Of a stretch of DNA of 35,657 nt, positions 1 through 13,123 are shown piece after piece. The notes under the pieces were generated by a model. That model saw only the letters and a program-made list of their open reading frames with translations, was not told where the DNA came from and ran no database searches. The first letter of the stretch is position 1. Each line of letters opens with the position of its first letter. This stretch comes from a virus (lineage: Duplodnaviria > Heunggongvirae > Uroviricota > Caudoviricetes). A program made the translations under genes and the position numbers. Where the stretch lies: IMG/VR virus record IMGVR_UViG_2534681762_000014; one strand, 5' to 3'.

Positions 1-1011
1 TTATAACGTCACTCCGCCTTTTAGTGGATTCAGAGCGACGGCATTTTGCAGATAGTCAGGCGCAAGGTGCGCATAGGCCATCGTCTGCTGAATGCTCGCA
101 TGTCCCAGAATCTGTTGCAGTGCGATTATATTGCCCCCATTCATCATGAAATGGCTTGCGAATGTATGCCGCAGGATGTGGGTTGCCTGATTGGGTGGTA
201 TATCAGGTTTCACTCTGCGTAAAATCCCGCAAAATTTCTCATAATCAACTTTGAATAATTTGGCGCTGGCCTCCTCTTTAACTTTTTTCTCCAGTTCCTC
301 AGAAATCGGCACGGTTCGCTTTTTACCGTTTTTGGTTTTCAGGAAGGTAACCCTGCAATTTGTAATCTGTGCTGGTTTTAGCGTGGCAACTTCCGTCCAT
401 CTTCCTCCAGTACTCAGACATAAAAGCGCGACAAGTAAGTCATCACCAGCCAAAACATTTAACAGTTTTTCGATTTCTGCTTTTTCCAGGAACGTCATTT
501 CAGGGTTGGCCTCCGCCAGTGGCGGCAGTCCGTGAATTGGGTGTTGCCCGGAAAATTCATCCAATTGAATTAATTTTGTGAACATGCCGGATAATCGGTA
601 CATGTCACGGTTTATCGTTGCGGCACTGATACCATCACGTAGTCGCATGGAACGATAATCCATCAAAGCCCTTTTGCTCATCCTGCTCACTGGTATATCA
701 CCTATGCCGCTGATGGTTTTGAGTAGATGATTAAACTCTTTTGTTCCATGCTCGTGGTTTTGCCCGTGATATTTCCACCAGATGTCCAGCAACTCACTCA
801 AAGTCCGGCGGTCTGCTCGCTGGCCTCCCCATTCTTTCTGACTGGCATTGGCGATTGTGTATCGCTCAAATGCTAGTGCTTCAGCTTTTCTTTCGAATTT
901 CCTGCGGATGCGTTTTCCGTCGCGACCGCGAGGTCTAATGTCCACTTCATAGCGACCATCATCGAGCTTCTTAATTGCCATAAGAAAGCCCTCCGGCGCT
1001 GTATTCACCAT
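1..1011 (-). CDS. int: P2-type tyrosine integrase, 336 aa, complete (stop at positions 1-3)
   Basis: Translation carries the tyrosine recombinase C-terminal catalytic region (HTFASHFMMNGG...LGHASIQQTMAYAHL) and an N-terminal arm-binding region; position and orientation next to C match P2. Confidence 0.9.
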   Translation of the reverse strand: MVNTAPEGFLMAIKKLDDGRYEVDIRPRGRDGKRIRRKFERKAEALAFERYTIANASQKEWGGQRADRRTLSELLDIWWKYHGQNHEHGTKEFNHLLKTISGIGDIPVSRMSKRALMDYRSMRLRDGISAATINRDMYRLSGMFTKLIQLDEFSGQHPIHGLPPLAEANPEMTFLEKAEIEKLLNVLAGDDLLVALLCLSTGGRWTEVATLKPAQITNCRVTFLKTKNGKKRTVPISEELEKKVKEEASAKLFKVDYEKFCGILRRVKPDIPPNQATHILRHTFASHFMMNGGNIIALQQILGHASIQQTMAYAHLAPDYLQNAVALNPLKGGVTL

Positions 1012-3237: not shown

Positions 3238-3509
3238 GTATTCGTATCGAAATTGGCGAACGTTATGTCGTTACCAGTGACAGCTTTCAGTTTATTCTCC
3301 ACGAGAAAAAGAGAGCTGAAAGCGGTAAAAACGCCGGTCAGGAATGGCTGGCGGTGGTTGGTTATTACCCGAAATTAAGCCAGCTCGTTTCCGGCCTGAT
3401 GCATCACGATATTCTGACCGGAAGCGCAAAGTCTTTTGCTGATTTAAACGCGCAGGTTGAGCAACTCAGCAAGCGTTGTTCAGAGGCTTTTGGCTCATAT
3501 GGCCGTTAA
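3234..3509 (+). CDS. Hypothetical early protein, P2 orf83 position
   Basis: ORF coupled to orf82 and overlapping the A start. Confidence 0.45.
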   Translation: MSIRIEIGERYVVTSDSFQFILHEKKRAESGKNAGQEWLAVVGYYPKLSQLVSGLMHHDILTGSAKSFADLNAQVEQLSKRCSEAFGSYGR

Positions 3510-5778
3510 AGCCTCCGGGCGTTTTGTCCCTCCGTCAGCATTTGCCGCAGGCACCGGTAAGATGTTTACCGGTGCTTATGCATGGAACGCGCCACGCGAG
3601 GCCGTCGGGCGCGAAAGACCCCTTACACGTGATGAGATGCGTCAGGTGCAAGGTGTTTTATCCACGATTAACCGCCTGCCTTACTTTTTGCGCTCACTGT
3701 TTACTTCACGCTATGACTACATCCGGCGCAATAAAAGCCCGGTGCACGGGTTTTATTTCCTCACATCCACTTTTCAGCGTCGTTTATGGCCGCGCATTGA
3801 GCGTGTGAATCAGCGCCATGAAATGAACACCGACGCGTCGTTGCTGTTTCTGGCAGAGCGTGACCACTATGCGCGCCTGCCGGGAATGAATGACAAGGAG
3901 CTGAAAAAGTTTGCCGCCCGTATCTCATCGCAGCTTTTCATGATGTATGAGGAACTCAGCGATGCCTGGGTGGATGCGCATGGCGAAAAAGAATCACTGT
4001 TTACGGATGAGGCTCAGGCTCACCTGTATGGTCATGTTGCTGGCGCTGCACGAGCTTTCAATATTTCCCCTCTCTACTGGAAAAAATACCGTAAAGGACA
4101 GATGACCACGAGGCAGGCATATTCTGCCATTGCCCGTCTGTTTAACGATGAGTGGTGGACTCATCAGCTTAAAGGCCAGCGTATGCGCTGGCATGAAGCG
4201 TTACTGATAGCTGTCGGGGAGGTCAATAAAGACCGTTCTCCTTATGCCAGTAAACACGCCATTCGTGATGTGCGTGCGCGCCGCCAGGCAAATCTGGAAT
4301 TTCTTAAATCGTGTGACCTTGAAAACAGGGAAACCGGCGAGCGCATCGACCTTATCAGTAAGGTGATGGGCAGTATTTCTAATCCTGAAATTCGCCGGAT
4401 GGAGCTGATGAACACCATTGCCGGTATTGAGCGTTACGCCGCCGCAGAGGGTGATGTGGGGATGTTTATCACGCTGACCGCGCCGTCAAAGTATCACCCG
4501 ACACGTCAGGTAGGAAAAGGCGAAAGTAAAACCGTGCAGCTTAATCACGGCTGGAACGATGAGGCATTTAATCCAAAGGATGCGCAGCGTTATCTCTGCC
4601 GTATCTGGAGCCTGATGCGCACGGCATTCAAGGATAATGATTTACAGGTCTACGGTTTGCGTGTCGTCGAGCCACACCACGACGGAACGCCGCACTGGCA
4701 TATGATGCTTTTTTGTAATTCACGCCAGCGTAACCAGATTATCGAAATCATGCGTCGCTATGCGCTCAAAGAGGATGGCGACGAAAGAGGAGCCGCGCGA
4801 AACCGTTTTCAGGCAAAACACCTTAACCGGGGCGGTGCTGCGGGATATATCGCGAAATACATTTCAAAAAACATCGACGGCTATGCACTGGATGGTCAGC
4901 TCGATAACGACACCGGCAGGCCGCTGAAAGACACTGCAGCGGCTGTTACCGCATGGGCGTCAACGTGGCGCATCCCGCAATTTAAAACGGTTGGCCTGCC
5001 GACAATGGGGGCTTACCGTGAACTACGCAAATTGCCTCGTGGCGTCAGCATTGCTGATGAGTTTGACGAACGCGTCGAGGCTGCTCGCGCTGCCGCAGAC
5101 AGCGGTGATTTTGCGTTGTATATCAGCGCGCAGGGTGGGGCAAATGTCCCGCGCGATTGTCAGACTGTCAGGGTTGCCCGTAGCCCGTCGGATGACGTTA
5201 ACGAGTACGAGGAAGAAGTCGAGAGAGTGGTCGGCATTTACGCGCCGCATCTCGGCGCGCGTCATATTCATATCACCAGAACGACGGACTGGCGCATTGT
5301 TCCGAAAGTGCCGGTCGTTGAGCCTTTGACTTTAAAAAGCGGCATCGCCGCGCCTCGGAGTCCTGTCAATAACTGTGGAAAACTCACCGGTGGTGATACT
5401 TCGTTACCGGCTCCCACACCTTCTGAGCACGCCGCAGCAGTGCTTAATCTGGTTGATGACGGTGTTATCGAATGGAGTGACCCGGAGGTCGTGAGGGCGC
5501 TCAGAGGTGCATTAAAACACGGTCGGAGAACGCCAAGTCGTCAGCAAAGAAACGGAAGCCCGTTAAAACCGCATGAAATTGCACCATCGGCCAGAATGAC
5601 CCGGTCGGAAAGAATGCAAATTACCCGTATCCGCGTTGACCTTGCTCAGAAGGGTATCAGGCCGCAGCGATGGGAGCTTGAGGCGCTGGCGCGTGGCGCG
5701 ACCGTAAATTATAACGGGAAAAAATTCACGTATCCGGTCGCTGATGAGTGGCCGGGCTTTACTGGCAGTACCACATAG
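3499..5778 (+). CDS. A: Replication initiation endonuclease A (rolling-circle initiator), about 759 aa
   Basis: Long ORF with P2 gpA-like sequence; start taken at the ATG at 3499 (MAVKASGRF); conserved Tyr-containing region (GAAGYIAKYISK). Confidence 0.85.
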   Translation: MAVKASGRFVPPSAFAAGTGKMFTGAYAWNAPREAVGRERPLTRDEMRQVQGVLSTINRLPYFLRSLFTSRYDYIRRNKSPVHGFYFLTSTFQRRLWPRIERVNQRHEMNTDASLLFLAERDHYARLPGMNDKELKKFAARISSQLFMMYEELSDAWVDAHGEKESLFTDEAQAHLYGHVAGAARAFNISPLYWKKYRKGQMTTRQAYSAIARLFNDEWWTHQLKGQRMRWHEALLIAVGEVNKDRSPYASKHAIRDVRARRQANLEFLKSCDLENRETGERIDLISKVMGSISNPEIRRMELMNTIAGIERYAAAEGDVGMFITLTAPSKYHPTRQVGKGESKTVQLNHGWNDEAFNPKDAQRYLCRIWSLMRTAFKDNDLQVYGLRVVEPHHDGTPHWHMMLFCNSRQRNQIIEIMRRYALKEDGDERGAARNRFQAKHLNRGGAAGYIAKYISKNIDGYALDGQLDNDTGRPLKDTAAAVTAWASTWRIPQFKTVGLPTMGAYRELRKLPRGVSIADEFDERVEAARAAADSGDFALYISAQGGANVPRDCQTVRVARSPSDDVNEYEEEVERVVGIYAPHLGARHIHITRTTDWRIVPKVPVVEPLTLKSGIAAPRSPVNNCGKLTGGDTSLPAPTPSEHAAAVLNLVDDGVIEWSDPEVVRALRGALKHGRRTPSRQQRNGSPLKPHEIAPSARMTRSERMQITRIRVDLAQKGIRPQRWELEALARGATVNYNGKKFTYPVADEWPGFTGSTT

Positions 5779-6081: not shown

Positions 6082-7077
6082 ATGACTACTAAGCCAATGA
6101 GTCGACTATATGAAAAAATCAGCAAGGCGGGGTTTAGCCGTTCATTTATACGCAAAGTCTTACCTTCATGGTGGGACGACAGCCTAGCTGATACACCTTC
6201 AGGTAAGCAGTACGCTAGCCTTCATTTGGCTCGTGTTTTTAGTTTGTCTCCAGAAAGTCTCAAGGATGGTTCTGAATCTGCGTCTTTCAACCTTGGTGGA
6301 AATCATCGCTTTAAACATCGTGTAAATCTTGGTGAGGAAGACCTGAATGTTGCTACTGCCGTTGCATATTCTGCGGCGAGGATTGTAGCAGAGAATTTCA
6401 GTATCCCGTTTAATCCAAACGCAGAACTTAATTGGCAGGCAGTGAGGGATAAACTGCTCAGCGATAAAAAGTGGGTGGATTTGGCTTCTCTGATTGGTTT
6501 TTGCCATTCGTTAGGCATTCCTGTTGTCTACATTAAGAACTTTCCAACGGGTGCGGCAAAAATGGCTGGCCTTGCATTAAGTGTATCTGGTAGGCCAGTA
6601 ATTGTTTTAACCCAAGCTAAAACCCATGGATTTATGCTATTTGATTTGGCTCATGAGCTTGGTCATATTGCACTAGGCCATCTCAATGATCTCAATGGGG
6701 GGGTCCATGTTGATCGCAAAATTGAAGCGCAGTCTACTAACAATCTTGAGGTGGCAGCTAACAAATATGCCTTTGGTTTGATTGGTGGAAAAGAGACTTT
6801 GAGAATAGCACCTACAAGGGGCTATCTCACAGGTGAAAAATTGGCTAGAGCTGCGCTAGTATATGGTACACAGCATTGCATAGAGCCAACTCATGTAGCT
6901 TTGAACTATGGTCACAATTTAGGGCACTGGGGAGTGGCTGTTAACGCTGTTAAAAGTATTTGCGTGGGACAACCGACAGACCAATCTTTAGCTAGGCAGC
7001 TCATGATGGATGCCATCGATCACGAAAATATTAATGACGACGACTTAGAACTTTTAACGACGCTATGTGGGGTTTAA
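6082..7077 (+). CDS. ImmA/IrrE-family zinc metallopeptidase-domain protein, 331 aa, hotspot cargo gene 1
   Basis: HExxH motif in the typical ImmA/IrrE context (FMLFDLAHELGHIALGH at about residues 185-200); good RBS (GGAGG) upstream; AT-rich relative to the phage backbone. Confidence 0.7.
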   Translation: MTTKPMSRLYEKISKAGFSRSFIRKVLPSWWDDSLADTPSGKQYASLHLARVFSLSPESLKDGSESASFNLGGNHRFKHRVNLGEEDLNVATAVAYSAARIVAENFSIPFNPNAELNWQAVRDKLLSDKKWVDLASLIGFCHSLGIPVVYIKNFPTGAAKMAGLALSVSGRPVIVLTQAKTHGFMLFDLAHELGHIALGHLNDLNGGVHVDRKIEAQSTNNLEVAANKYAFGLIGGKETLRIAPTRGYLTGEKLARAALVYGTQHCIEPTHVALNYGHNLGHWGVAVNAVKSICVGQPTDQSLARQLMMDAIDHENINDDDLELLTTLCGV

Positions 7078-7080
7078 GTA

Positions 7081-7603
7081 GTGATCGTTCTTTCAGACAA
7101 TGATGTCATTTTGAAACTAGCGCAGTGTAATTTACTCCGTTACCTTCCTGAGATTTTGGAAGAGGATCCGCGAGGCATCTATGTTAGTCCGACGGCTCGT
7201 TTTCAATTATTACCGCGCAATACTGATAAAGCCATTAAGAAGTGCGGTAGTGTGGCTATTTACGAAAATGTGGAAAGATTTCTAGGAAGTGTGCAAGTTA
7301 TTGATGAAATCAGAAACGATGATTTGCTGATTAAACTTGGTGAGATACCACACATAGATGTCGGCGAACAACAGCTTTTAGCTGCATGCGTTGAGCAACC
7401 AGGAGCTTTGTTCATGACAGGTGACCGTCGATGTTTGCAGGCTGTGATGGACAATCAGACTATTGTCGCTACGGTTCATGCGCGTCTAATTGACTCAGTA
7501 ATAACCTATGAGAGTGCTCTTTTGCTTTCTGTTCGCGTTTTAGGATTTGAGACTCTATATCAACAACTACAAACGAACCCGAATCCAGATGCAATGCTGA
7601 GGA
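7081..7603 (+). pseudogene. PIN-like putative nuclease, N-terminal fragment (residues 1-174); gene interrupted by IS10
   Basis: GTG start 3 bp after the peptidase stop; N-terminal MIVLSDNDVIL resembles the first PIN strand with its acidic residue; later TGD motif; the frame runs into IS10 at 7604. Confidence 0.55.
7595..7603. repeat. IS10 target-site duplication, left copy (TGCTGAGGA)
   Basis: Identical 9-mer directly flanks both IS10 ends; fits the IS10 GCTNAGC preference. Confidence 0.85.
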
Positions 7604-8932
7604 CTGATGAATCCCCTAATGATTTTTATCAAAATCATTAAGTTAAGGTAGATACACATCTTGTCATATGATCAAATGGTTTCGCCAAAAATCAATAATC
7701 AGACAACAAGATGTGCGAACTCGATATTTTACACGACTCTCTTTACCAATTCTGCCCCGAATTACACTTAAAACGACTCAACAGCTTAACGTTGGCTTGC
7801 CACGCATTACTTGACTGTAAAACTCTCACTCTTACCGAACTTGGCCGTAACCTGCCAACCAAAGCGAGAACAAAACATAACATCAAACGAATCGACCGAT
7901 TGTTAGGTAATCGTCACCTCCACAAAGAGCGACTCGCTGTATACCGTTGGCATGCTAGCTTTATCTGTTCGGGCAATACGATGCCCATTGTACTTGTTGA
8001 CTGGTCTGATATTCGTGAGCAAAAACGACTTATGGTATTGCGAGCTTCAGTCGCACTACACGGTCGTTCTGTTACTCTTTATGAGAAAGCGTTCCCGCTT
8101 TCAGAGCAATGTTCAAAGAAAGCTCATGACCAATTTCTAGCCGACCTTGCGAGCATTCTACCGAGTAACACCACACCGCTCATTGTCAGTGATGCTGGCT
8201 TTAAAGTGCCATGGTATAAATCCGTTGAGAAGCTGGGTTGGTACTGGTTAAGTCGAGTAAGAGGAAAAGTACAATATGCAGACCTAGGAGCGGAAAACTG
8301 GAAACCTATCAGCAACTTACATGATATGTCATCTAGTCACTCAAAGACTTTAGGCTATAAGAGGCTGACTAAAAGCAATCCAATCTCATGCCAAATTCTA
8401 TTGTATAAATCTCGCTCTAAAGGCCGAAAAAATCAGCGCTCGACACGGACTCATTGTCACCACCCGTCACCTAAAATCTACTCAGCGTCGGCAAAGGAGC
8501 CATGGGTTCTAGCAACTAACTTACCTGTTGAAATTCGAACACCCAAACAACTTGTTAATATCTATTCGAAGCGAATGCAGATTGAAGAAACCTTCCGAGA
8601 CTTGAAAAGTCCTGCCTACGGACTAGGCCTACGCCATAGCCGAACGAGCAGCTCAGAGCGTTTTGATATCATGCTGCTAATCGCCCTGATGCTTCAACTA
8701 ACATGTTGGCTTGCGGGCGTTCATGCTCAGAAACAAGGTTGGGACAAGCACTTCCAGGCTAACACAGTCAGAAATCGAAACGTACTCTCAACAGTTCGCT
8801 TAGGCATGGAAGTTTTGCGGCATTCTGGCTACACAATAACAAGGGAAGACTTACTCGTGGCTGCAACCCTACTAGCTCAAAATTTATTCACACATGGTTA
8901 CGCTTTGGGGAAATTATGAGGGGATCTCTCAG
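7604..8932 (+). mobile_element. IS10 (IS4 family), complete 1329-bp copy
   Basis: Outside end CTGATGAATCCCCTAATGATTTT at 7604 and inside end ...GGGGATCTCTCAG at 8932; length exactly 1329 bp; encodes the 402-aa IS10 transposase. Confidence 0.9.
7711..8919 (+). CDS. tnp: IS10 transposase, 402 aa
   Basis: Translation recognised as Tn10/IS10 transposase (MCELDILHDSLYQF...HGYALGKL). Confidence 0.9.
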   Translation: MCELDILHDSLYQFCPELHLKRLNSLTLACHALLDCKTLTLTELGRNLPTKARTKHNIKRIDRLLGNRHLHKERLAVYRWHASFICSGNTMPIVLVDWSDIREQKRLMVLRASVALHGRSVTLYEKAFPLSEQCSKKAHDQFLADLASILPSNTTPLIVSDAGFKVPWYKSVEKLGWYWLSRVRGKVQYADLGAENWKPISNLHDMSSSHSKTLGYKRLTKSNPISCQILLYKSRSKGRKNQRSTRTHCHHPSPKIYSASAKEPWVLATNLPVEIRTPKQLVNIYSKRMQIEETFRDLKSPAYGLGLRHSRTSSSERFDIMLLIALMLQLTCWLAGVHAQKQGWDKHFQANTVRNRNVLSTVRLGMEVLRHSGYTITREDLLVAATLLAQNLFTHGYALGKL

Positions 8933-8941
8933 TGCTGAGGA
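8933..8941. repeat. IS10 target-site duplication, right copy (TGCTGAGGA)
   Basis: Exact match to 7595-7603. Confidence 0.85.
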
Positions 8942-9060
8942 TGGCTATGCGTTCTCGCAGCTCAGAAGATGTTTGTGGCTGCTTCTTTTCTTATACGCGC
9001 CCTGTATACGATTATCTGGCCTTTAAACAACATTTACCGGATCGTGCTTGGTTGCTTTAA
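8942..9060 (+). pseudogene. PIN-like gene, displaced C-terminal fragment (38 codons plus stop)
   Basis: When one duplication copy and IS10 are removed, the 7081 frame continues open for 39 codons to TAA at 9058-9060. Confidence 0.5.
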
Positions 9061-9123
9061 TCTATCCGTAATGAGTGTTTAGCGCATCAATTTGCATGAG
9101 TATATGATGCACGAATATTATAT

Positions 9124-9149
9124 AGCCCGTCAGTAATGGCGGGCTTTTT
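9124..9149 (+). terminator. Rho-independent terminator candidate downstream of the hotspot operon
   Basis: Stem AGCCCGTC/GGCGGGCT with 6-nt loop followed by TTTT. Confidence 0.45.
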
Positions 9150-9193
9150 ACTATCTGGTGCATCTGCATCAAAACCGCCCCATGAAGCGGGCG

Positions 9194-9212
9194 GGCGAGG
9201 CGGGGAAAGCAC
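9194..9212. other. cos: cos site: P2-type 19-nt cohesive-end sequence GGCGAGGCGGGGAAAGCAC
   Basis: Matches the P2 cohesive end as I recall it; located between the hotspot and the portal gene as in P2. Confidence 0.6.
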
Positions 9213-9354
9213 TGCGCGCTGGCGGTGGTGCTGATTTTATTTTTTCAGCGTCTGAGCGCGTCGTGATGGCGTTTAGATTGTGCGTCGGGGCGTTGGTGTA
9301 TCTAAGGGGTGTTTTGTGCGGTGGTGAGCGTGTGAGGGCGTGATGACGGGATGT

Positions 9355-9376
9355 AAAAAAGCCGCCCGCAGGCGGC
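9355..9376 (-). terminator. Rho-independent terminator downstream of Q (minus strand)
   Basis: GC-rich hairpin GCCGCC-CGCA-GGCGGC preceded on the plus strand by A6 (U-run on minus), immediately after the Q stop. Confidence 0.6.
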
Positions 9377-9381
9377 GATGT

Positions 9382-9875
9382 TCAGTCGTTGTCAGTGTCC
9401 AGTGAGTAGTTTTTAAAGCGGATGACCTCCTGACCGAGCCAGCCGTTTATCTCTCGGATCCTGTCCTGTAACGGGATAAGCTCATTGCGGACAAAGACCT
9501 TTGCCACTTTCTCAATATCACCCAGCGACCCGACGTTCTCCGGCTTGCCGCCCATCAACTGAAAGGGGATGCGGTGTGCGTCCAGCAGGTCAGCGGCGCT
9601 GGCTTTTTTGATATTAAAAAAATCGTCCTTCGTTGCCACTTCACTGAGTGGGATAATTTTAATGCCGTCAGCTTTCCCCTGCGGGGCATAGAGAAACAGG
9701 TTTTTAAAGTTGTTGCGGCCTTTCGACTTCACCATGTTTTCGCGAAGCATTTCGATATCGTTGCGATCCTGCACGGCATCGGTGACGTACATGATATATC
9801 CGGCATGTGCGCCATTTTCGTAATACTTGCGGCGGAACAGCGTGGCCGACTCATTCAGCCAGGCAGAGTTAAGGG
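9382..9875 (-). pseudogene. Q: Portal protein Q, C-terminal fragment (gene split by IS66-family insertion)
   Basis: Translation continues the portal sequence (...NSAWLNESATLFRRKYY...) from the fragment at 12575-13123; the apparent Met at 9886-9888 lies inside the IS. Confidence 0.8.
9868..9875. repeat. IS66-family target-site duplication, left copy (GTTAAGGG)
   Basis: Same 8-mer at 12575-12582, flanking the element. Confidence 0.75.
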
Positions 9876-9928
9876 GTAACCGGCTCATTTAAACCGTCTG
9901 GTCTGTTTCCTCCGGCTCTACAAAAATA

Positions 9929-10606
9929 ATGTCCATCATTTTTAATGGACACTATCGTATGAAACACCGGACCTGGATCACTGAAGCTTTACGTCTTCAC
10001 TTTGAAGAACATTTACCCCGGGTTGTGGCCGGGCGTCGCCTGGGTGTACCAAAATCAACAGTTTGTAGTATGTTCGTGCGCTTTCGGAGAGCTGGCCTTT
10101 CGTGGCCTTTGCCCGCAGGCATGTCGGAGCAGGAACTTGATGCCTGCCTTTACGGACAATTTTCCACGGTACCAGTCGTACGTCCTGAAAGCACCGTTAT
10201 ATCCGAAGCCCCCGTGGTAAAAAAACGTCCCCGGCGGCCCAACTTCCCTTATGAGTTTAAAATCGCCTTAGTGGAGCAGTCACTGCAGCCCGGAGCCTGT
10301 GTGGCGCAGATCGCCCGGGAAAACGGAATCAACGATAACCTGCTCTTCAACTGGCGCCATCAATACCGGAAAGGTGGCCTGCTGCCTTCCGGAAAAAATA
10401 TGCCGGCACTGCTTCCCGTGACGTTAACGCCGGAGCCGGATAATAAAATCCCGGCCCCCGCACAGGAACCAGAGCAGATAAATACACCGTCCGACAGTCT
10501 GTGTTGTGAGCTGGTTCTGCCGGCCGGAACTCTCAGGCTTAAAGGTAAACTGACGCCGGCGTTATTACAGACACTTATCCGCGAAATAAAAGGGAGCAGC
10601 CACTGA
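9929..10606 (+). CDS. tnpA: IS66-family accessory protein TnpA (orf1), with an N-terminal HTH-like extension
   Basis: Contains the IS66 orf1 signature (PNFPYEFKIALVEQSLQPGACVAQIARENGINDNLLFNWR); true start may be the downstream Met at 9959. Confidence 0.7.
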   Translation: MSIIFNGHYRMKHRTWITEALRLHFEEHLPRVVAGRRLGVPKSTVCSMFVRFRRAGLSWPLPAGMSEQELDACLYGQFSTVPVVRPESTVISEAPVVKKRPRRPNFPYEFKIALVEQSLQPGACVAQIARENGINDNLLFNWRHQYRKGGLLPSGKNMPALLPVTLTPEPDNKIPAPAQEPEQINTPSDSLCCELVLPAGTLRLKGKLTPALLQTLIREIKGSSH

Positions 10607-10953
10607 TGATATCTCTCCCTGCAGGTTCGCGTATCTGGCTGGTTGCAGGTATCACCGATATGCGAAATGGCTTTAACGGCCTGGCATCAAAAGTTCAGAA
10701 CGTCCTGAAGGATGACCCGTTCTCCGGACACCTGTTCATCTTCCGCGGACGCCGGGGTGACCAGATAAAAGTGTTGTGGGCTGACAGTGACGGACTGTGC
10801 CTCTTCACCAAACGCCTGGAGCGGGGCCGCTTCGTCTGGCCAGTCACCCGTGACGGCAAGGTGCACCTTACTCCGGCTCAGTTATCCATGCTTCTTGAAG
10901 GTATCAACTGGAAGCACCCGAAACGAACGGAACGCGCTGGAATCCGCATATAA
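10606..10953 (+). CDS. tnpB: IS66-family TnpB (orf2), 115 aa
   Basis: Characteristic size and sequence; overlapping stop/start with orf1. Confidence 0.8.
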   Translation: MISLPAGSRIWLVAGITDMRNGFNGLASKVQNVLKDDPFSGHLFIFRGRRGDQIKVLWADSDGLCLFTKRLERGRFVWPVTRDGKVHLTPAQLSMLLEGINWKHPKRTERAGIRI

Positions 10954-10972
10954 CCCGTTGTAAAGTGAGGAT

Positions 10973-12544
10973 ATGGACACCTCACTTGCTCATGAGAACG
11001 CCCGCCTGCGGGCACTGTTGCAGACGCAACAGGACACCATACGCCAGATGGCTGAATACAACCGCCTGCTCTCACAGCGGGTGGCGGCTTATGCTTCCGA
11101 AATCAACCGGCTGAAGGCGCTGGTTGCGAAACTGCAACGTATGCAGTTCGGTAAAAGCTCAGAAAAACTTCGTGCAAAAACCGAACGGCAGATACAGGAA
11201 GCACAGGAGCGAATCAGCGCACTTCAGGAAGAAATGGCGGAAACGCTGGGTGAGCAATATGACCCGGTACTGCCATCCGCCCTGCGCCAGTCTTCAGCCC
11301 GTAAACCGTTACCGGCCTCACTTCCCCGTGAAACCCGGGTTATCCGGCCGGAAGAGGAATGCTGTCCTGCCTGTGGTGGTGAACTCAGTTCTCTGGGATG
11401 TGATGTGTCAGAGCAACTGGAGCTTATCAGCAGCGCCTTTAAGGTTATCGAAACACAACGTCCGAAACTGGCCTGTTGTCGGTGCGACCATATCGTGCAG
11501 GCACCAGTACCTTCAAAACCCATTGCACGCAGTTATGCCGGAGCGGGGCTCCTGGCCCATGTCGTCACCGGAAAATATGCAGACCATCTGCCGTTATACC
11601 GCCAGTCAGAGATATACCGCCGTCAGGGTGTGGAGCTGAGCCGTGCCACACTGGGGCGCTGGACAGGTGCCGTTGCTGAACTACTGGAGCCGCTGTATGA
11701 CGTCCTGCGCCAGTATGTGCTGATGCCCGGTAAAGTCCATGCTGATGATATCCCCGTCCCGGTCCAGGAGCCGGGCAGCGGTAAAACCCGGACAGCCCGG
11801 CTGTGGGTCTACGTCCGTGATGACCGTAACGCCGGTTCACAGATGCCCCCGGCGGTCTGGTTCGCGTACAGTCCGGACCGGAAAGGTATCCATCCACAAA
11901 ATCACCTGGCCGGTTACAGCGGTGTGCTTCAGGCCGATGCTTACGGTGGTTACCGGGCGTTATACGAATCCGGCAGAATAACGGAAGCCGCGTGTATGGC
12001 TCATGCCCGGAGAAAAATCCACGATGTGCATGCAAGAGCGCCCACCTACATCACCACGGAAGCCCTGCAGCGTATCGGTGAACTGTATGCCATCGAGGCA
12101 GAGGTCCGGTGCTGTTCAGCAGAACAGCGTCTGGCGGCAAGAAAAGCCAGAGCCGCGCCACTGATGCAGTCACTGTATGACTGGATACAGCAACAGATGA
12201 AAACACTGTCGCGTCACTCAGATACGGCAAAAGCGTTCGCATACCTGCTGAAACAGTGGGATGCACTGAACGTGTACTGCAGTAATGGCTGGGTGGAAAT
12301 CGACAACAACATCGCAGAGAACGCCTTACGGGGAGTGGCCGTAGGCCGGAAAAACTGGATGTTCGCGGGTTCCGACAGCGGTGGTGAACATGCGGCGGTG
12401 TTGTACTCGCTGATCGGCACATGCCGTCTGAACAATGTGGAGCCAGAAAAGTGGCTGCGTTACGTCATTGAACATATCCAGGACTGGCCGGCAAACCGGG
12501 TACGCGATCTGTTGCCCTGGAAAGTTGATCTGAGCTCTCAGTAA
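10973..12544 (+). CDS. tnpC: IS66-family transposase TnpC, 523 aa
   Basis: Characteristic size; N-terminal coiled coil, CxxC-type zinc-finger region, DDE core. Confidence 0.85.
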
Positions 12545-12574
12545 ATATCAATACGGTTCTGACGAGTCGCTTAC

Positions 12575-12582
12575 GTTAAGGG
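12575..12582. repeat. IS66-family target-site duplication, right copy (GTTAAGGG)
   Basis: Exact match to 9868-9875. Confidence 0.75.
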
Positions 12583-13123
12583 CGCTGAGATATTCCGGCA
12601 GGCCGTACAGCTCCTGATTAATATCCGGCTCCAGCAGGTGAAACACGGAGCCGGGTGCGAAGGCTGTCGGCTCGTTGAAGGACGGCACCCACCAGTAAAC
12701 ATCCTCCTCCACACCACGGCGGGTATATTTTGCCGGTGAGGTTTCCAGTCTGATGACCTTACCGGTGGTGCTGTAACGCTTTTCCAGAAACGCATTACCG
12801 AACACCAGAAAATCCAGCACAAAGCGGCTGAAATCCTGCTGGGAAAGCCACGGGTGCGGAATAAACGTTGAAGCCAGAATATTACGTTTGACGTAAATCG
12901 GTGAGCTGTGATGCACGGCAGCACGCAGGCTTTTTGCCAGACCGGTAAAGCTGACCGGTGGCTCATACCATCTGCCGTTACTGATGCACTCGACGTAATC
13001 CAGAATGTCACGGCGGTCGAGTACCGGCACCGGCTCACCAAAGGTGAATGCCTCCATTTTTGGGGCACTGGCAGTCATTTTTTTTGCCGCAGGTTGCGGT
13101 GTTTTCCCTTTTTTCTTGCTCAT
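12575..13123 (-). pseudogene. Q: Portal protein Q, N-terminal fragment
   Basis: Starts MSKKKGKTPQPAAKKMTA...; the last 9 codons of the listed ORF (to 12548) are IS-derived. Confidence 0.8.

Follow-up and report, generated by a model that had tools for sequence, protein, structure and literature searches.

IS10 insertion with a 9-bp target duplication interrupts the PIN-like gene of a P2 hotspot module in a prophage

Results

Insertion of IS10 into Gene 2

The DNA analyzed here (the window) is a stretch of 35,657 nucleotides from a virus of the Caudoviricetes (IMG/VR record IMGVR_UViG_2534681762_000014). It contains a P2-like prophage in which a two-gene module, consisting of a predicted metalloprotease gene (gene 1) and a gene for a PIN-like protein (gene 2), was shown to be interrupted by a complete copy of the insertion sequence (IS) IS10. 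The mutation is real, recent and ordinary: a textbook IS10 insertion. We consider it highly probable that the insertion is recent and specific to this E. coli strain, that it has left the product of gene 2, a putative effector, likely non-functional, and that it was an incidental event.

The IS10 copy of exactly 1329 bp, which could be read directly from the sequence (Table 1), was found between two identical copies of the 9-mer TGCTGAGGA, and no further copy of this 9-mer was present on either strand of the window. The chance expectation for an identical flanking 9-mer is approximately 4^-9. The left end (CTGATGAATCCCC) and the right end (GGGGATCTCTCAG) of the element form imperfect terminal inverted repeats of approximately 23 bp, with 17 out of 23 positions identical (CTGATGAATCCCCTAATGATTTT compared to CTGAGAGATCCCCTCATAATTTC). 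The transposase open reading frame (ORF) is uninterrupted and is the only ORF of the element. Over its full length, the element showed 99.9% DNA identity to IS10/ISVsa5 copies on more than 1,000 plasmids and likewise to copies in E. coli genomes, and it differed by 1 nt from the IS10 copy of Tn10 on pHCM1. This sole difference, a G for A at window position 7710 (IS10 position 107), is located directly 5′ of the transposase ATG and falls within the region of translational and antisense control of IS10.

IS10 is known to be 1329 bp in length, to prefer targets of the type NGCTNAGCN and to generate a 9-bp duplication (PMC4574204; PMC2744996). The duplicated 9-mer fitted this consensus at five of the six specified positions, with one half-site perfect and a G for C in the other, and the target is 1 base away from the preferred GCTNAGC. 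The size, terminal repeats, 402-amino acid (aa) transposase, 9-bp duplication and target preference were thus all those of IS10. The initial annotation, made from the letters of the sequence, had placed a complete 1329-bp IS10 between identical 9-mers, and its coordinates were found to be correct throughout.

When IS10 and one 9-mer were removed by joining positions 7081–7603 to 8942 onward, an ORF of 213 codons with a stop at 9058–9060 was obtained, in agreement with the earlier proposal that the frame would reopen for 39 codons. In the interrupted ORF, 174 native codons are followed by 12 IS-encoded codons (TDESPNDFYQNH) and a stop at 7639–7641, so that the insertion lies in codon 175 and exactly 39 native residues (175–213) are lost. 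The reconstructed protein was residue-for-residue the same as an allele recorded on 554 public contigs (P0210), a one-residue variant of which was found on a further 290 contigs. Besides, IS10 now stands between the terminator-like hairpin located 3′ of the native stop and the two genes of the module.

A 37-aa C-terminal remnant of gene 2 (MRSRSSEDV..., window 8947–9060) was called as a separate gene. The same remnant is also named in GenBank, from E. coli DEC5C (EHV42270.1, on a contig of approximately 171 kb), and gene 2 of DEC5C may therefore be disrupted at this site or close to it.

Empty Site and Age of the Insertion

The empty site was found in one piece, with 99.8–100% DNA identity, in 12 of 5,426 complete E. 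coli genomes, and it was reproduced from the window by removing IS10 and one 9-mer. In these genomes, an ImmA/IrrE metallopeptidase is followed by an annotated hypothetical protein of 213 aa (WP_000636521 or WP_000636522), and gene 2 was intact in all 12. An uninterrupted allele in related strains, for which the initial annotation had suggested a search, is thus present both in these complete genomes and, as P0210, on the contigs mentioned above.

The window was shown to correspond to contig AQEJ01000024.1 of assembly GCA_000355115.2 (100% identity over the 17.6 kb compared), and the 186-aa product of the interrupted gene has been recorded from one contig only, in this same assembly. After removal of IS10 and one 9-mer, the hotspot cargo matched the intact allele found in strain NC22 with 100% identity over 2,103 bp, and both strains encode the same gene 1 protein. 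The perfect target duplication, the near-identity of the IS to circulating copies, the complete identity of the cargo and the single-contig product together point to a recent and strain-specific insertion, which is in line with the fairly recent event that had been suggested from the duplication.

Contigs of approximately 998 bp in the short-read assemblies SRR447115 and SRR447116 matched window positions 8907–9903 with 99.9–100% identity and contained the right IS10 junction, showing that the insertion is not an artefact of one assembly. These contigs break off 26 nt into IS10 at one end and 28 nt into ISCro1, a second IS located further downstream, at the other. Breaks inside both elements are the usual sign that both are multi-copy in a genome, and further IS10 copies are probably present in this one; the question of whether IS10 occurs elsewhere in the genome is thereby answered indirectly. 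The configuration with both IS10 and ISCro1 was likewise seen in these independent read sets.

Artefacts are known to arise when IS10 transposes in the course of laboratory propagation (PMC4574204), and the interrupted allele is carried by one assembly only, so that an assembly chimera or a jump of IS10 during laboratory handling has to be considered. However, a perfect duplication of 9 bp is what real transposition leaves behind, the right junction recurs in both short-read assemblies, and if IS10 had jumped while the isolate was in culture, this would still have been a genuine transposition. An artefact is therefore regarded as extremely improbable.

Conservation of the Lost C-Terminal Tail

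The 39 lost residues are native to gene 2. Among 58 closer homologues (down to 42% identity), almost all were 211–215 aa in length and aligned end-to-end, with 97–100% query coverage. Searching 1.84 billion cluster representatives with a profile gave 1,208 relatives (representatives at 50% identity) at E ≤ 1e-3 and 508 at E ≤ 1e-10; nearly all of the 1,208 were 200–217 aa in length and aligned to approximately position 195 or beyond. Homologues ending near residue 174, which would have spoken against a native tail, were looked for and did not appear as a class in either set, and the alignment of the IS-free gene to its homologues thus confirmed what the initial annotation had assumed.

The tail was also shown to be conserved to much the same degree as the remainder of the protein. 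The majority-residue fraction of the tail (residues 175–207) compared to the core was 0.66 vs. 0.68 in the close family and 0.40 vs. 0.43 in the broad family. C188, S191, L200, K203, and L206 were invariant among the aligned full-length homologues, and position 189 and S191 were still at least 90% conserved in an alignment of 48 sequences of 23–49% identity. The lost part includes the helix 182–199, which is gap-free across the alignments, and the conserved L200-A201-x-K203 stretch. In an AlphaFold2 (AF2) model made on a protein with 99% identity to the reconstructed 213-aa protein (P0001), the predicted local distance difference test (pLDDT) score was approximately 95 over residues 141–200, so that the helix is predicted with high confidence.

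PIN-Like Identity of Gene 2

The gene 2 protein showed the alpha/beta/alpha fold of PIN domains. In the broad-family alignment, D6, D8, K12, G95, E96, G114, D115, and E144 were invariant, and D6, E96, D115, and E144 occupy the canonical four acidic PIN positions, the assignment to the active site being made by position in the fold. Fold and motif together support a PIN-like (VapC-like) protein, which upholds this designation without a curated sequence family, and by analogy the product would be a metal-dependent nuclease.

Neither gene 2 nor its distant relatives matched any model in Pfam, NCBIfam or PADLOC. In PHROGs, the only match was to phrog_15597 (unknown function), of which the 212-position profile was fully covered. 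Membership in DUF4411 was rejected, as neither gene 2 nor ten distant relatives matched DUF4411 or any Pfam PIN family even at E-values up to 0.1–1. By tblastn, no match to the 213-aa protein was obtained among the INPHARED phage genomes; the module is known to occur in prophages, and not in deposited phage genomes.

Gene 1 and the Two-Gene Module

Gene 1 ends 3 nt before the start of gene 2. It contains a Peptidase_M78 domain (31.5 bits; cutoff 22) with an invariant HExxH motif, preceded by an N-terminal helix-turn-helix (HTH)-like domain. Adjacent M78 and PIN genes in the same order, 0–4 nt apart, were found in E. coli, in P2-like hotspots of Erwinia and Dickeya, and in a distant metagenomic relative, the latter a single case in a non-phage context. 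A HTH–M78/ImmA protease gene in a conserved adjacent two-gene operon is the organization of Rosmer-like modules, and on account of this architecture, an ImmA-type protease with a small effector, gene 2 is probably the effector or toxin of a Rosmer-like module, a candidate toxin–antitoxin or anti-phage system, with gene 1 as its presumed regulator or antitoxin partner; membership is thereby suggested rather than demonstrated.

The PADLOC search gave weak matches of gene 1 to capP, RmrA and PD-Lambda-2_B, confined to the peptidase (M78) motif. The RmrA models matched gene 1 with E-values of 2e-6 to 0.05 over approximately 50–90 residues of the peptidase motif, and RmrT did not match gene 2. Membership of gene 1 in the named systems PD-Lambda-2_B and capP was rejected, as these matches span the M78 motif only.

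In the supplementary table of Rousset 2022, the pair is given as "Peptidase_M78 + hypothetical, WP_000208725 + WP_000636521" among the cargo of P2 hotspots; apart from this listing, no experimental report on WP_000208725 or WP_000636521 was found in the literature. ImmA-protease antitoxins have been reported to pair with diverse toxins, including PIN-like ones (Ernits 2023, PMC10440598), and systems with PIN-like, HTH and DUF955/COG2856 components have been predicted (Matelska 2017, PMC5499597).

Prophage Setting

The module is located between the P2 replication endonuclease gene A (3457–5778; Pfam Phage_GPA, E 3e-123) and the portal gene, a position that corresponds to the P2 defence hotspot of Rousset 2022 and Vassallo 2022 (PMC9519451, PMC9122126), and the intact loci share the same gpA–module–portal layout. 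Approximately 0.9 kb downstream of IS10, the portal gene is split by ISCro1 into fragments at 9382–9888 and 12548–13123 (− strand), so that the prophage is defective and can no longer make particles. ISCro1, of which 100% identical copies are present in many E. coli genomes, is flanked by its own 8-bp duplication GTTAAGGG (9868–9875 and 12575–12582). A composite transposon formed by IS10 and ISCro1 was ruled out because the two belong to different families and have separate target duplications.

The integrase gene is located at window positions 1–1011 (− strand), and the P2-like prophage was found to be integrated beside cpxA-cpxR-cpxP (locus L003, 1–2900, upstream of window position 1). In some strains with the intact module, such as E. 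coli NC22 (locus L001, 7120–8256), an additional gene of the ParA family lies between the genes for the PIN-like protein and the portal; this gene is absent from the window and from strain 5506. The hotspot cargo is therefore itself modular.

Table 1. Features of the interrupted module and its surroundings (window positions).
Feature	Position	Strand	Remarks
Gene 1, 331 aa, N-terminal HTH-like and M78 (ImmA/IrrE, CapP-like) metalloprotease domain	6082–7077	+	Intact
Interrupted gene 2, PIN-like 5′ part fused to IS10 codons	7081–7641	+	Native 7081–7602; 186 aa, WP_024221532.1
Left copy of target duplication TGCTGAGGA	7595–7603		Identical to 8933–8941
Complete IS10 (IS4 family; ISVsa5 in RefSeq), 1329 bp	7604–8932	+	Outside end left, transposase reads rightwards
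IS10 transposase ORF, 402 aa	7711–8919	+	From ORF list; Pfam DDE_Tnp_1, E 1.5e-24
Right copy of target duplication TGCTGAGGA	8933–8941		Junction also in SRR447115 and SRR447116 contigs
Orphaned 3′ remnant of gene 2 (codons 175–213 with base 7603)	8942–9060	+	Native stop 9058–9060; reconstruction identical to P0210
Terminator-like hairpin and T run, 3′ of native gene 2 stop	9124–9145	+	
Complete ISCro1 (IS66 family), 2,699 bp; tnpA, tnpB, 523-aa transposase	9876–12574		Splits portal gene Q

Discussion

Consequence of the Insertion

Transposition put IS10 into codon 175 of 213 at a near-consensus target with the usual 9-bp duplication, whereby the last 39 residues were replaced by 12 IS-encoded residues and the operon was separated from its terminator. 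The effector would then most likely be misfolded or non-functional and the module dead in this strain. The cause would be incidental IS activity in a genome with mobile IS10 and ISCro1 and a decaying prophage. As the lost tail is conserved and confidently modelled, the truncated protein has likely lost its function. The initial annotation held that the effector is inactivated or C-terminally altered. The alteration, with 39 residues lost, is plain from the sequence, whereas inactivation is something we infer, since all four catalytic-type acidic residues are encoded upstream of the break.

The 186-aa product keeps D6, E96, D115, E144, and also D170, and could still act as an unregulated or altered nuclease. 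In addition, the outside end of IS10 lies directly against the 5′ part of gene 2 and contains an outward promoter, pOUT (PMC2744996); as this end faces left, read-out from pOUT would be antisense to the truncated gene 2 and to gene 1 and might change expression of the module. We consider it very unlikely that the truncated protein or such new transcription is functional. The lost segment matches the core in conservation, is gap-free in the family and is modelled with very high confidence, as expected for a structural part of the domain, and almost no family member is without it, fragments aside, while the antisense effect is reasoned from the orientation of the element alone.

It is also quite unlikely, in our judgement, that the 39-residue tail is regulatory or partner-binding and that IS10 has removed control rather than catalysis. 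According to such a reading, gene 2 would be the effector of an uncharacterised defence or toxin–antitoxin (TA) family that combines a HTH-M78 protease with a long PIN-like nuclease whose C-terminal helix is conserved, and the strain would be a natural knock-out.

Selection or Chance

The initial annotation had hinted at selection against a toxic effector, and this idea found no support. IS10 was present in 1,903 of the 5,426 complete E. coli genomes (35%), occupying a median of 2 and at most 45 places in a genome. Outside the IS elements, the window contained 153 sites that were as close to the IS10 consensus as the site used, or closer, and four of these are located in gene 2, approximately its share by length. 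Intact alleles were recorded on more than 850 contigs compared to the one contig with the interrupted product.

Adaptive inactivation, in which a PIN protein that is costly or toxic through leaky activation or lost regulation is knocked out by IS10 under selection, would be consistent with the probable role of the struck gene as the effector of a TA-like pair, with the untouched partner gene 1, with a prophage already made defective by ISCro1, and with the few other truncated gene 2 alleles on record. It is nevertheless unlikely, given the single interrupted contig against the hundreds with intact alleles, the retention of an intact gene 2 in 12 of 12 complete genomes with the module, and the ordinary quality of the target among the comparable sites in the window. 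Moreover, an identical gene 1 accompanies an intact gene 2 elsewhere, and there is no sign of a prior loss of the antitoxin. As the target is near-consensus, IS10 is common, gene 1 is intact, a second IS resides in the portal gene and intact alleles persist elsewhere, the event can be explained without selection against a toxic effector, and incidental IS activity is favoured.

Some observations weigh against an incidental knock-out of the effector. The invariant acidic residues and D170 are all upstream of the break, and residual or altered activity of the truncated protein would be compatible with this. The case for neutrality is argued from an absent signal, and one event cannot separate drift from selection. 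Other short alleles of gene 2 are present in E. coli assemblies, namely one of 128 aa (P0209, 5 contigs) and one of 196 aa (P0217, 2 contigs). Finally, as regards the role of effector, PADLOC holds no model for gene 2, and for gene 1 the weak matches to the peptidase motif are all that it returned.

Meaning of the Interrupted Allele

This strain's copy of the prophage accessory module is probably dead, and WP_024221532.1 should be read as the product of an IS-truncated pseudogene and not as a distinct protein. For work on phage defence by the M78 and PIN pair, the strain would offer a natural knock-out for comparison with isogenic intact alleles. Together, IS10 and the ISCro1 insertion in the portal gene show a P2-like prophage under degradation by IS activity. 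The target module itself deserves experimental attention, as it is widespread, hotspot-borne and absent from Pfam, NCBIfam and PADLOC.

Comparison with Known Systems

The element is essentially the same as IS10R of Tn10 (IS4 family; ISVsa5 in RefSeq), with which it shares length, termini, the 402-aa DDE transposase, the 9-bp duplication and a target close to NGCTNAGCN, except that the copy in the window is solo and outside any Tn10.

Compared to the VapC toxins of VapBC, the gene 2 protein showed only 6–16% identity and contains an extra 80–90 residues; the partner is a 331-aa metalloprotease instead of a small VapB-type antitoxin. Similarly, it is longer (approximately 213 aa) than typical VapC and DUF4411 proteins, and it contains an inserted helical region as well as the conserved C-terminal helix. 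The module also differs from the CapH-CapP switch of CBASS (cyclic oligonucleotide-based antiphage signaling system) and from IrrE/DdrO and ImmA/ImmR, as it has no adjacent separate repressor of the CapH, DdrO or ImmR type; instead, the HTH-like domain is fused to the N-terminus of gene 1, and the downstream gene is a PIN gene and not a CBASS operon.

The predicted systems of Matelska 2017 (DUF4411, COG2405, PIN_14/20/26; PMC5499597) likewise contain a PIN-like gene directly 3′ of a fused HTH-M78 gene, but differ in that gene 2 has no DUF4411 or Pfam PIN match. RosmerTA and Rosmer-like modules (Millman 2022; Ernits 2023, PMC10440598) differ in that the best match of gene 1 to RmrA is weak (E 2e-6) and that gene 2 matches no PADLOC, Pfam or NCBIfam model; what they have in common with the module described here is an operon of a HTH-like and M78/ImmA protease gene with a small effector gene, located in a phage defence hotspot.

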